The notes under the pieces were generated by a model. It saw only the letters and a program-made list of their open reading frames with translations, did no database searches and was not told the DNA's origin. From an uncultured Spartobacteria bacterium (GTDB lineage Bacteria; Verrucomicrobiota; Verrucomicrobiia; Chthoniobacterales; JAATET01), in the NCBI GenBank assembly GCA_938011325.1, contig CALLUD010000013.1:7461-71460 (forward strand): a DNA stretch of 64,000 nucleotides, given 5' to 3'. Each line of letters opens with the position of its first letter. Position 1 is the stretch's first letter. Below are positions 29,841-32,773 of the stretch, piece after piece. The position numbers and the translations under genes were made by a program.

Positions 29841-31295
29841 ATGACCAGACTTTTGTTCGCAGTCGCCTGTTTGCTTGCCGCATCGAGCACGGCGGTGCAG
29901 GCCGCGCCCGACATCCTCCGCAAGAGTCTCGTGCGCATCCAGACCGTGTCGCAGGACCCCGACATTGCCGTTCCGTGGAACGCGGGCCGCGTGGGACAGG
30001 GCATCGGCGCGGGGTTCGTGATCTCCGGAAACCGGATCATGACGAACGCCCACGTCGTCAGCAACGCGCGCTACATCTTCATCACCCGCTACGGCGACCC
30101 GAATCGCTACCCCGCCCGCGTCAAACACATCGCGCACGACTGCGATCTCGCCGTGCTGGAGCCGGTGGACGAGAAGTTCTTCGAAGGCATGCAGCCTCTG
30201 GAACTCAACGGCCTGCCCGAGATCGAATCAACCGTTCACGTTTACGGTTACCCGATCGGCGGGGAGCGCCCGTCCGTCACGCGAGGCATCGTGTCGCGCA
30301 TCGATTTCCTTCCCTACTCCCATTCCGGAGCCGACTCGCATCTGGTCATTCAGATCGATGCCGCCATCAATCCCGGCAACAGCGGCGGCCCCGTCCTGCA
30401 GGACGGCAAGGTCGTCGGCGTCGCCTTCCAGGGCTACAGCGGCGCCGTGGCGCAAAACACGGGCTACATGATTCCGACGCCTGTGATCAAACGCTTCCTC
30501 AAAGACATCGAGGACGGCCATTACGATCATTACGTCGATCTCGCACTCACCTACCTGCCGCTCTTCAACCCTGCAGCAAGGCGTGCTCTGGGGCTTCCCG
30601 ACAATGGCCTCGGCGTCATGGTCAGCAGCATCTACGGCGGCGGTGCGTCCGATGGCATCGTGAAGCCAAACGACGTCATTGTCGCCATCGACGGTATGCC
30701 CGTGGCAAGTGACGGCTCGGTGGAGCTTGACGGCAGCTTTGTCGAGATGAACGAGGTGGTGGAGCGGAAGTTCAAAGGCGACAAGGTCACGCTCGACGTG
30801 ATTCGCGACGGCAAGCCGCTCACCCTCACGGTGCCGCTCGACGGGCCCTTCCCGTTCACGATCTACGCAAATACCTACGATGTGCAGCCGCGTTTCGTGC
30901 TGTTTGGCGGCCTGCTCTTTCAGCCGCTCGACCAGAATTTCCTGAACACCACGTCGATCAACAACTCGCGGACGCGCTATTACTTCGACCATTTCCTGTT
31001 CGACGACCTCTACAAGGAGCGCCCGGAGATCGTGATTCTCAGCAACATCCTCTCCGATCCCGTCAATGCATATGCCGACGAGTTCCAGCACGCGATCGTC
31101 GACAAGATCAACGGCGTGCCCGTGAAGACGCTCAACGAAGTCGCCGCCGCGTTCGAAAAGCCGGCTGACTACTACGTGATCGAGTTTCTCGGAGCGGGCC
31201 GCCCGCTCGTGCTGGAGGCGGAGGCCGTCGCCGCCGCGCACGACCGCATCATCTCGCGCTACGGCGTGCTCAAGGAATCGAACCTGCAGCCATGA
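29841..31295 (+). CDS. Secreted S1C (HtrA/Deg-like) serine protease with an intact catalytic triad
   Basis: 484 aa with a signal peptide. His in MTNAHVV, Asp in HDCDLAVLE, Ser in NPGNSGGPV. It has a C-terminal PDZ-like region. Confidence 0.88.
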   Translation: MTRLLFAVACLLAASSTAVQAAPDILRKSLVRIQTVSQDPDIAVPWNAGRVGQGIGAGFVISGNRIMTNAHVVSNARYIFITRYGDPNRYPARVKHIAHDCDLAVLEPVDEKFFEGMQPLELNGLPEIESTVHVYGYPIGGERPSVTRGIVSRIDFLPYSHSGADSHLVIQIDAAINPGNSGGPVLQDGKVVGVAFQGYSGAVAQNTGYMIPTPVIKRFLKDIEDGHYDHYVDLALTYLPLFNPAARRALGLPDNGLGVMVSSIYGGGASDGIVKPNDVIVAIDGMPVASDGSVELDGSFVEMNEVVERKFKGDKVTLDVIRDGKPLTLTVPLDGPFPFTIYANTYDVQPRFVLFGGLLFQPLDQNFLNTTSINNSRTRYYFDHFLFDDLYKERPEIVILSNILSDPVNAYADEFQHAIVDKINGVPVKTLNEVAAAFEKPADYYVIEFLGAGRPLVLEAEAVAAAHDRIISRYGVLKESNLQP

Positions 31296-32773
31296 TTTCC
31301 CGTCTTCGCCTCTTCGCGCTGGCGCTGGTCCTGCCGGTGGCCGCCATTCAAGCCGAGACCACTGCAGCAAAGGCCGATACCGACTCCGTGGTGCGGGTCA
31401 ACTCGACCAATCAGGCATTCAACTTTGTCCGCCCATGGATCAAGCGCCAGCCATTCACGCGGCGCGGCATCGGCGTCATCCTTCCCGGCAATCGCGTGCT
31501 CGTGACGGCGGAGCTCGTCGCCAATCACAACTACGTCGAGCTTGAGCGCGCAACGAGTTCCGAAAAATCGCCCGCCGAAGTCGTGCAGATTGACTACGAG
31601 TCGAATCTCGCGCTTCTCGAGCCGCAGATTCCGGGATTCCTCGACGACGCGAAACCCGTGCAGCTTGCGGACGACATTCGTGTCGGCAGCAGGGTGGAGA
31701 TCCTTCAGCTCGAAAGTTCCGACGCCATCGCGCTCACGCCCGGGGTGGTCACCACGATCACCGTGCTGCCGTATCCGATGGATGGCGTCGCCCTGCTCAT
31801 CTACAAGCTGAGCGTTCCGCTCCAGTATCGCGACAACAGCTTCACGATGCCGGTGTTCTCCGGCGACAAGCTGGCCGGTCTGCTCATGCGCTACGACATG
31901 CGTTCGCAGACCGCCGACATCGTGCCGGATGTCGTTATTTCCAGTTTCCTGCAGCGCGCCGCGAAGACGCCCTATCAAGGCTTTCCGCGTGCCGGCATCG
32001 CATTTGCCCCGACGCGGGATCCTCAATTCCGTCGCTATCTCGGAATGGCTCCCGGACAAAGCGGCGTTTACATCGTTTCCGTGCAGCATGGCAGCGCGGC
32101 GGAAAAAGCCGGCCTGCGCAAGGGCGACGTCCTGATGCGGATCGACGGCTACGACATCAACGAGGATGGCAACATCGAACATCCCCACTTCGGCCGCATT
32201 CCTTTCAGCCATCTCATTTCCACGGAGCATCTGCCCGGCGAGAAACTGCTGATGCACGTCTTCCGTGGCGGAACGGACTTCGATCTGGAATTGTCGCTGG
32301 AGCCGCGCGATCCGTCCACCGTGATCAGCGAGCCCCTGATTATGGACAAGGCGCCGCGTTATCTCATTCTGGGCGGCGTCGTGTTTCAGGAACTCTCCCG
32401 CTCCTATCTCCGCGAGTGGGGTGCGGACTGGAAGAACAGTGCTCCGCCACGCCTCGTTTACCTCGACGAATTCCAGGACGAACTTCCCGCCGATCGCGGC
32501 AAGATCGTCTTCATCAGCCAGATCCTCCCCGCCGACACCACGATTGGTTACGAGGATGTGGGCACAGTCGTCGTGGAGAAGGTCAACAACCGGGAAATCC
32601 GAAGCCTCGAGGATGTCGCGGAGGCGGTGAAGAATCCCGTCAACGGATTCCACAAGATCGAGCTCGAGTCCGACCCGGGCACGATCTACCTCGATCCCAA
32701 GGCTGTCGAGGAAGGCGCGGAAGCGCTGAAGGCGAGCTACGGACTGCCCGCGTTGCAAAACCTCGCCAGGTAA
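31292..32773 (+). CDS. S1C protease paralogue with a degenerate catalytic triad (predicted pseudoprotease) and a PDZ domain
   Basis: 493 aa. ATGA overlap with the upstream protease. Collinear alignment by eye gives VTAELVA in place of TNAHVV, ESNLALLE in place of DCDLAVLE, and RDNSFTMPV in place of PGNSGGPV. PDZ: GVYIVSVQHGSAAEKAGLRKGDVLMRIDG. Confidence 0.8.
   Translation: MISRLRLFALALVLPVAAIQAETTAAKADTDSVVRVNSTNQAFNFVRPWIKRQPFTRRGIGVILPGNRVLVTAELVANHNYVELERATSSEKSPAEVVQIDYESNLALLEPQIPGFLDDAKPVQLADDIRVGSRVEILQLESSDAIALTPGVVTTITVLPYPMDGVALLIYKLSVPLQYRDNSFTMPVFSGDKLAGLLMRYDMRSQTADIVPDVVISSFLQRAAKTPYQGFPRAGIAFAPTRDPQFRRYLGMAPGQSGVYIVSVQHGSAAEKAGLRKGDVLMRIDGYDINEDGNIEHPHFGRIPFSHLISTEHLPGEKLLMHVFRGGTDFDLELSLEPRDPSTVISEPLIMDKAPRYLILGGVVFQELSRSYLREWGADWKNSAPPRLVYLDEFQDELPADRGKIVFISQILPADTTIGYEDVGTVVVEKVNNREIRSLEDVAEAVKNPVNGFHKIELESDPGTIYLDPKAVEEGAEALKASYGLPALQNLAR

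Follow-up and report, generated by a model that had tools for sequence, protein, structure and literature searches.

The closest described relatives of the gene pair reported here are Deg2 and Deg9, plant clade II proteases of the HtrA family (structures 4FLN and 5IL9). These are eukaryotic homo-oligomers (hexamer, octamer) whose subunits all have the triad intact. The Deg2 protomer is made rigid, and two trimers are locked into a sealed hexamer, by the loop-LA residue Trp134 together with an internal PDZ ligand; this ligand consists of strand beta21, which includes Tyr440, and an (A/G)G turn, and Trp134 stacks on it (PMC3481350). The pair lies in a 64,000-nucleotide (nt) stretch of DNA from an uncultured Spartobacteria bacterium of the order Chthoniobacterales (contig CALLUD010000013.1, positions 7,461 to 71,460; hereafter the window). 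Gene A (29841..31295, + strand) codes for a Deg2/Deg9-type HtrA (S1C) serine protease of 484 amino acids (aa), assigned by Pfam and its solved relatives. Gene B (31292..32773, + strand) codes for a predicted pseudoprotease paralogue of the same type, 493 aa long, assigned by Pfam, its Deg9 match, AlphaFold2 and Foldseek. Proteins A and B have the same protease domain, conventional PDZ1 and unusual PDZ2 (PDZ_3) as Deg2 and Deg9. They differ from the plant proteins as two distinct bacterial putative subunits, one of them predicted to be dead, with overlapping genes and signal-peptide-like N-termini.

An active unit joined to a dead one is known from DEG7/Nma111, in which an active protease-PDZ-PDZ half is followed by a degenerate protease-PDZ-PDZ half, in the same order as genes A and B. 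The degenerate protease domain of DEG7 mediates trimerisation, and a parallel between DEG7 and ClpP/ClpR has been drawn (PMC3194040). DEG7 is a single polypeptide of ~1100 aa from a different HtrA clade, whereas A and B are two separate open reading frames (ORFs). Hidden Markov models (HMMs) of the A and B orthologs scored the DEG7 halves at 8–22 bits, compared with 210–377 bits for DEG2 and DEG9 (sequences from the supplement of PMC3473262). The Nma111-type PDZ_1 domain (PF12812) reached 13.7 and 19.4 bits in A and B, under its cut-off of 28. With DEG7 halves scoring only this low, DEG7/Nma111 was ruled out as a fusion descendant of the pair; the likeness to DEG7 is thus convergent, the pair being neither its ancestor nor its descendant.

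A bacterial protease working with a pseudoprotease, as we propose for A and B, is found in magnetotactic bacteria, where the HtrA-family protease MamE works with the HtrA-derived MamO. MamO activates MamE, also binds metal directly and serves biomineralisation; pseudoproteases were reported there in magnetotactic bacteria only, where they arose independently in three taxa (PMC4794232). Against the NCBIfam MamE model, with a cut-off of 800 bits, A scored 63 and B 33. The resemblance of the pair to DEG7/Nma111 and to MamE/MamO is analogy, not descent. PflC of the Campylobacter jejuni flagellar motor has the protease-PDZ-PDZ plan and, as in B, Asp replaced by Asn, an aligning Ser and a lost His; it is a structural lattice protein of 364 aa and is not described with an active HtrA paralogue (PMC12222027). 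ClpP/ClpR of cyanobacteria and plastids combine active and dead paralogous subunits in one self-compartmentalising protease. This is an analogy only: their fold and family (S14) are unrelated, and they are ATP-dependent through partner unfoldases. None of the curated NCBIfam HtrA equivalogs (DegP, DegQ, DegS, MamE, HhoA and others) reached its cut-off for A or B, and the best NCBIfam match was TIGR02037 (cut-off 416), to which A scored 114 bits and B 44.5 bits. That prokaryotes contain inactive homologues of serine proteases is known in general terms (PMC2605481). Searches of the open-access literature turned up no account of a bacterial operon that joins an active to a dead Deg2/9-type protein, and the pair is a widespread, apparently undescribed two-gene HtrA module.

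Protein A passed the Pfam cut-offs for Trypsin_2 (86.2 bits, 4.8e-24; cut-off 27.6), PDZ_2 (35.4 bits, 1.4e-08) and PDZ_3 (84.5 bits, 8.1e-24). Its best solved relatives over the full length are Deg2 (4FLN, 1.6e-75) and Deg9 (5IL9, 2.7e-70); bacterial DegP, DegQ and DegS match it over the protease domain and PDZ1 only, at ~1e-13 to 1e-18. HMMER and MAFFT aligned its motifs TNAH71VV, HDCD102LAVL and GNS181GGP to the Deg2/Deg9 triad, so the original prediction that the first protein keeps His, Asp and Ser holds. The codons are CAC at 30051..30053 for His71, GAT at 30144..30146 for Asp102 and AGC at 30381..30383 for the nucleophile Ser181 (all +), and the triad is kept in 84/84 A orthologues. A putative Sec signal peptide, recognised by reading the sequence only, occupies 29841..29903 (+; MTRLLFAVACLLAASSTAVQA). 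Loop LA carries Trp46 (29976-29978, +), the counterpart of Trp49 in B, and an internal PDZ-ligand strand with a GG turn, PRFVLFGGLLF, spans residues 350–360. By its protease domain, triad and PDZ domains, A is assigned to the HtrA family (MEROPS S1C) and the Deg2/9 subfamily. It is predicted to be an exported Deg2/Deg9-type HtrA serine protease with its triad intact, export being suggested by the putative signal peptide.

Gene B begins within the end of gene A. The junction reads ...gcagccATGAtttcc, and the 4 nt at 31292..31295 (+) belong to both the ATG of B and the TGA of A, an ATGA overlap that is a signature of translational coupling and that the original prediction had described correctly. 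BLASTP aligned the two proteins collinearly over their whole length, with 26% identical and 48% positive positions (E 9e-45), which agrees with the collinear paralogy claimed before. With a similarity far above chance, A and B are judged to be paralogues that share one three-domain plan, namely a protease domain, PDZ1 and a Deg2-type PDZ2.

In protein B, Trypsin_2 scored 17.2 bits, under the cut-off of 27.6. PDZ1 exceeded the Pfam cut-offs with PDZ_6 (37.6 bits), PDZ_2 (37.5) and PDZ (32.8), and the second, Deg2-type PDZ domain matched PDZ_3 (PF17815) at 95.8 bits (2.6e-27). The earlier claim that B keeps a well-formed PDZ domain was right and understated, as there are two. Its best solved relatives are Deg9 (5IL9, 6.2e-48, full length) and Deg2 (4FLN, 3.5e-32); bacterial DegP, DegQ and DegS match it over PDZ1 only. 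A putative Sec signal peptide was read at 31292..31354 (+; MISRLRLFALALVLPVAAIQA), where the AlphaFold2 model has an N-terminal helix, at residues 2–18, with lower pLDDT. Trp49, in a PW motif in loop LA, aligned as the equivalent of Deg2 Trp134 (31436..31438, +). The internal PDZ ligand of B, a strand with a GG turn (PRYLILGGVVF, residues 355–365; 32354..32386, +), aligned to Deg2 beta21 with its Tyr440, and P355, G361, G362 and F365 are conserved at >=97% in the order-wide alignment.

The active site of B is altered. The catalytic His position is held by Glu74 in VTAE74LVA (codon GAG, 31511..31513, +); of the 86 orthologues, 73 have E there, 12 have D and one has S. The catalytic Asp position is held by Asn105 in YESN105LALL (codon AAT, 31604..31606, +), with N in 86/86. 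The Ser loop is remodelled to QYRDNSFTMP (residues 178–187; 31823..31852, +): two residues are inserted in YRDNS183FTMP and the oxyanion-hole glycines of GNSGG are gone. The column of the nucleophile depends on the aligner, HMMER and MAFFT placing Phe184 there and BLASTP Asn182. Within the order, S183 is found in 86/86 orthologues, followed by F/Y184 and P187. A hidden canonical triad in B was ruled out, the sole His of its protease domain, H79, not being conserved, and the order-wide alignment has no His conserved at >=97% at any position of B. All motifs cited in the original prediction are there, and its observation is confirmed in full; the substitutions it proposed (Glu, Asn and the lost oxyanion glycines) correspond to E74, N105 and DNS183FTMP. 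Alignment to the Trypsin_2 and PDZ HMMs and to Deg/HtrA structures put the triad on A and E74/N105 at the His and Asp positions of B, and showed no overlooked triad in B. B is classed from these alignments as a non-peptidase homologue in the HtrA family, Deg2/9 subfamily.

A conserved serine and the acidic residue at position 74 raise another reading, in which B is an enzyme with a non-canonical site: Ser183 as nucleophile, Glu74 as general base and Asn105 in an orienting role. Sedolisins use a Ser-Glu-Asp triad, and in Chthoniobacterales Ser183 and Asn105 are present in 86/86 orthologues and position 74 is acidic in 85/86. The GNSGGP/DNSFTMP alignment of the original prediction also sets Ser on Ser. 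However, one orthologue has Ser74, HMMER and MAFFT put Phe184 at the nucleophile column, and the loss of the oxyanion-hole glycines and the 2-residue loop insertion speak against a working site. The wider family does so as well. A B-ortholog profile searched against 1.84 billion cluster representatives gave 1282 matches at E<=1e-30. Among the best 150 matches, 128 were full-length, 10 with canonical H/D/GNSGGP and 118 without the triad; counted as cluster representatives at 50% identity, no fewer than 118 of these 128 nearest full-length clusters lack the triad. Across 123 triad-less sequences, His is kept in 4 and Asp in 16 (Asn instead in 96), Ser stands at the nucleophile column in 4, and none has all three; the two that have both His and Asp lack Ser. 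The His position of the wider B clade is filled by E, D, A, Q, S, T, F, R, K and others, which, with Ser this rare, indicates that the family is not built around a Ser183/Glu74 site. Distant B-like proteins have Ser loops of the GGWxEPVF and NGEGxPV types, without Ser, so Ser183 is an order-local feature and not a family-wide catalytic residue. We regard the non-canonical enzyme as highly improbable.

The pair is conserved throughout the order. A search with B found 1821 relatives at E<=1e-5; the best 120, at 52–100% identity, included no precomputed Trypsin_2 match, and those with names belong to Terrimicrobiaceae or Chthoniobacterales (Verrucomicrobiota). We compared 85 loci, consisting of 80 kept of 172 from a scan with one genome per species and 5 from contig look-ups. 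An A-like ORF lies directly 5' of B in 84/85 Chthoniobacterales loci, which settles the question of conservation in related genomes raised with the original prediction; at the one other locus, no more than 146 nt of sequence precede B. A stop/start overlap is present in 80/85 loci (4 nt in 67, 1 nt in 13), and the loop-LA Trp is invariant in each A and B examined. Metagenome-assembled genomes (MAGs) labelled Chthoniobacter flavus carry the pair, so cultured relatives such as Chthoniobacter flavus are likely carriers.

The structure of B was predicted with AlphaFold2. An alignment of 16 sequences gave pLDDT <50 for PDZ2, which was remedied with 78 sequences, giving a mean pLDDT of 94.1 and a pTM of 0.90. 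Foldseek superposed this model on Deg9 and Deg2 chains with TM 0.85–0.92 and rmsd 2.4–2.8 A over ~470 columns, and on DegP and DegQ with TM ~0.45–0.5 only. The confident model and the Deg9/Deg2 superposition indicate that B is structurally complete, a predicted Deg2/9-type protease-PDZ1-PDZ2 protomer without a working triad. Selection on B was estimated by dN/dS (NG86, 12 genome pairs), which was 0.043–0.151 for B and 0.036–0.123 for A, with synonymous sites saturated among the compared genomes. Purifying selection on B is comparable in strength to that on A. The ORF of B is full-length in all 85 loci and 85 of its positions are >=97% conserved. In the alignment of 78 genomes, mean pairwise identity of A and B was 76% and 58% in the protease domain, 59% and 50% in PDZ1, and 57% and 60% in PDZ2. 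The protease domain of B is relaxed yet far from free, and PDZ2 is its best-kept part. PDZ2 of B contains a B-specific motif, ELSRxYLxEWGxDW...AP, which is closer to Deg9 than to A and may mark the surface most important for B function.

These data also bear on whether B is a decaying duplicate, a functionless pseudogene. Such a gene could have lost its triad and fallen under the Pfam cut-off for Trypsin_2, as B has. A decaying gene would not be expected to keep an intact ORF in 85 loci, a dN/dS of 0.04–0.15, 85 near-invariant positions and a fold predicted at pLDDT 94, or to belong to a clade of 118 or more clusters at 50% identity. Selection and conservation together refute the pseudogene reading, to which we assign next to no chance. 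The earlier suggestion of a catalytically dead paralogue retained for a function is thereby upheld by the loss of the triad, by selection and by linkage.

The origin of the pair was traced by scores between lineages. Full-length A-A comparisons gave 274–661 bits and B-B comparisons 152–591 bits, and all A-B comparisons, same-genome ones included, gave 64–181 bits. A neighbour-joining tree of 147 sequences, built on Poisson distances, split 123 inactive from 24 active sequences in 100/100 bootstraps, although artificial grouping of fast-evolving sequences is possible with this method. The 24 active sequences were A-likes, DEG2, DEG9, two singletons and DEG1 as outgroup. Together the scores and the split point to one ancient duplication and inactivation, after which A and B would have been inherited together; B has evolved faster than A.

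The pair was also found outside the order. For seven distant B-like proteins, a Trypsin_2+PDZ_3 gene lies directly 5' in six; in the seventh (P0199), the contig ends within the upstream ORF, which has no Pfam annotation but a translation of A-like appearance. Their junctions are overlaps of 4, 1, 8 and 4 nt and gaps of 1, 5 and 30 nt. One distant pair belongs to Candidatus Erginobacter occultus of the phylum Auribacterota. Another adjoins a Lon gene whose best named matches are from Proteobacteria, Silvanigrellaceae and Deltaproteobacteria, a weak hint of a Proteobacteria/Bdellovibrionota-like host and of a module that reaches beyond the PVC group. Two active Deg2/9-type genes with intact triads have no adjoining B, one in a Candidatus Sericytochromatia MAG and one on a contig with Bacteroidota-type neighbours (Por_Secre_tail, SprB) (L093:4001-5476 and L094:4001-5452), so the active type can stand alone. 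B without A was not seen among the 84 informative Chthoniobacterales loci and the seven distant ones. On these comparisons, the pair is a two-gene module of ancient origin within the Deg2/Deg9 clade and extends far outside this genome, which the original prediction had understated. One ORF of 1005 aa (P0280, L092:2403-5420) looked like a natural A-B fusion and was weighed as Rosetta-stone evidence, but was rejected as a 1-nt frameshift artefact, probably introduced in assembly: both the A C-terminus (...KRYGIQQDRNL*) and the ATGA junction reappear in the +1 frame, and the signal peptide of B is located in the middle of the ORF.

Since B is dead by prediction, is under purifying selection and always directly follows A, mostly with a stop/start overlap, the most economical reading is that it acts as a partner or regulator of A. 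The stop/start overlap would couple translation, so that A and B would be made together in roughly equal amounts. From the two proteins a hetero-oligomeric cage resembling Deg2 could form; DEG7 and MamE/MamO are precedents for a dead HtrA module at the service of an active one. All aligned A and B, the distant ones included, have the Trp of loop LA as well as the internal PDZ ligand and GG turn (P-x-[Y/F]-x-x-x-[A/G]-G). Because these hexamer-locking elements are kept in both proteins, the simplest model would be an A trimer facing a B trimer; mixed trimers would also be possible. B would contribute a scaffold and PDZ surfaces through which A would be held, gated or allosterically regulated, and activation, restraint and substrate recruitment are all compatible with such a role. 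In this model B would be a non-catalytic but obligate subunit of a Deg2-like A-B hetero-oligomeric cage, to which we give a probability of roughly 0.6.

Several observations weigh against this cage. Adjacency and overlap are also compatible with simple co-regulation of two independent proteins, and compact bacterial operons often contain 4-nt overlaps. At three of the seven distant loci the genes do not overlap but are separated by 1, 5 and 30 nt. The divergence of A and of B across genomes is correlated (r = 0.96), as expected from shared phylogeny, and is thus no evidence for interaction. Since Deg2 and Deg9 function as homo-oligomers, A could do without a partner, and A-type singletons exist. 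The taxon was established for few of the distant pairs (Auribacterota; one hint from the Lon gene).

In the main rival reading, B is an autonomous periplasmic chaperone, holdase or adaptor that forms no complex with A and is co-transcribed with it because the two share a task in envelope protein quality control. The fold and both PDZ domains of B are intact, a protease-dead DegP works in this way, and the Deg2-type self-assembly elements kept in B would make B-only cages possible. Deg2 has chaperone-like activity (PMC3481350), and the PflC scaffold is an HtrA pseudoprotease with an independent, non-proteolytic role (PMC12222027). An independent chaperone would, however, be expected to unlink from A in some lineages, and B was never found away from A (84/84 informative plus seven distant loci), whereas A-types occur alone. 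The overlap is also kept in 80/85 loci despite saturated synonymous sites. We therefore consider an autonomous B unlikely.

The parallel with PflC leads to a further reading, in which B is a repurposed structural or ligand-binding protein unrelated to proteolysis and A is a neighbouring relic of the duplication. The substitutions in B match those of PflC, with Asp replaced by Asn, Ser kept in sequence and His lost (PMC12222027), and B has motifs of its own, invariant within the order and lacking in A (RVNSTNQ, a basic LA loop, GLLMRY and EWGxDW). The metal binding of MamO would be another parallel for such a role. The motifs specific to B are not kept in the distant B-likes, which still adjoin an A-like gene. 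The strict A-B linkage and the lack of a conserved third partner gene beside the pair also argue against a role apart from A, and a structural protein of this kind seems quite improbable.

Returning to the cage of A and B, the chances are about even that the pair represents an undescribed, widespread bacterial HtrA class, in which a catalytic Deg2-type trimer is capped by or interleaved with a dead paralogue that gates or allosterically controls it. As part of the same evenly balanced reading, this two-subunit class would be a split-gene prokaryotic counterpart of the eukaryotic DEG7/Nma111, independent of them.

The genes around the pair are variable. Upstream on the same strand (+) lie genes for P-II (27325-27663, Pfam), BacA/UppP (27725-28570, Pfam), a small DUF6941 protein (28575-28961; PF22091, 3.6e-19) and an M23 peptidase (29043-29795; PF01551, 2.7e-20), followed by A, with gaps of 4–81 nt. 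The Pfam matches confirm the M23 peptidase and the small gene that had been placed immediately upstream on the same strand (28575-29795). The full P-II/BacA/DUF6941/M23 set occurs in 10/85 loci and part of it in 3 more; it is absent from the other Chthoniobacterales loci. No M23 gene lies next to the pair in the distant loci examined, and no conserved third partner gene flanks the pair among the loci examined, the flanks elsewhere being unrelated. These four genes were ruled out as part of the module on their presence in 10–13/85 loci. The envelope-proteolysis cluster that the original prediction drew from the M23 peptidase and the small gene was accordingly not supported; the association is lineage-specific and the idea holds at most for the closest clade. 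BacA and DUF6941 are 4 nt apart, and the P-II/BacA/DUF6941/M23 run recurs in 10 related loci. DUF6941 might have a cell-wall function, given its association with an undecaprenyl-pyrophosphate phosphatase and a peptidoglycan M23 peptidase.

Downstream, the interval of a convergent GH43 gene (32802-33935, - strand) starts 28 nt past the end of B, so B closes the co-directional run. This gene and a GH76-like gene (25204-26688, +) flank the cluster and are unrelated to the pair; the flanking glycoside hydrolases fit the polysaccharide-degrading lifestyle of Chthoniobacterales. At 34879-35913 (- strand), a protein with a FecR domain (PF04773, 7.5e-12) ends at its C-terminus in a long low-complexity tail rich in Pro and Lys (PEPPKPPKPPKPPKPPKPECKPPKPPPGPKQPKPVPPPPPPPVPPAPQYPH). 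A sigma-70 promoter scan of 27000-33200 found 4 promoter-like sites where 1.3 were expected, none ahead of A, and a terminator scan of the same region found 5 terminator-like sites where 5.5 were expected; both were uninformative. Scans of the window for tRNA genes and Rfam families gave no matches. AT skew has outliers of -0.23 at 6001-8000 and -0.24 at 62001-64000, and GC content is 0.68–0.69 at 58001-62000 compared with ~0.61 elsewhere in the window.

Herein, our findings bear on how HtrA proteases may be regulated. The characterised bacterial HtrA proteases are, to our knowledge, homo-oligomers regulated through their own PDZ domains. If the A-B cage is real, we are aware of no earlier case of a bacterial HtrA protease that is an obligate hetero-oligomer, and an always co-encoded dead paralogue would add a new regulatory principle to the HtrA family, that of a pseudoenzyme subunit. 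The importance of B rests on its conservation, equal to that of A, on its single ancient origin and on its share of the nearest full-length clusters at 50% identity, no fewer than 118 out of 128. The pair would also offer a clean natural example of convergence with the fused DEG7/Nma111 proteases of plants and fungi. For annotators, it would be a reason to drop the labels 'S1-C subfamily serine protease' or simply 'PDZ domain-containing protein' for B-type proteins. The retention of the pair in many bacteria suggests an undescribed two-subunit protein quality-control machine, probably in the periplasm.

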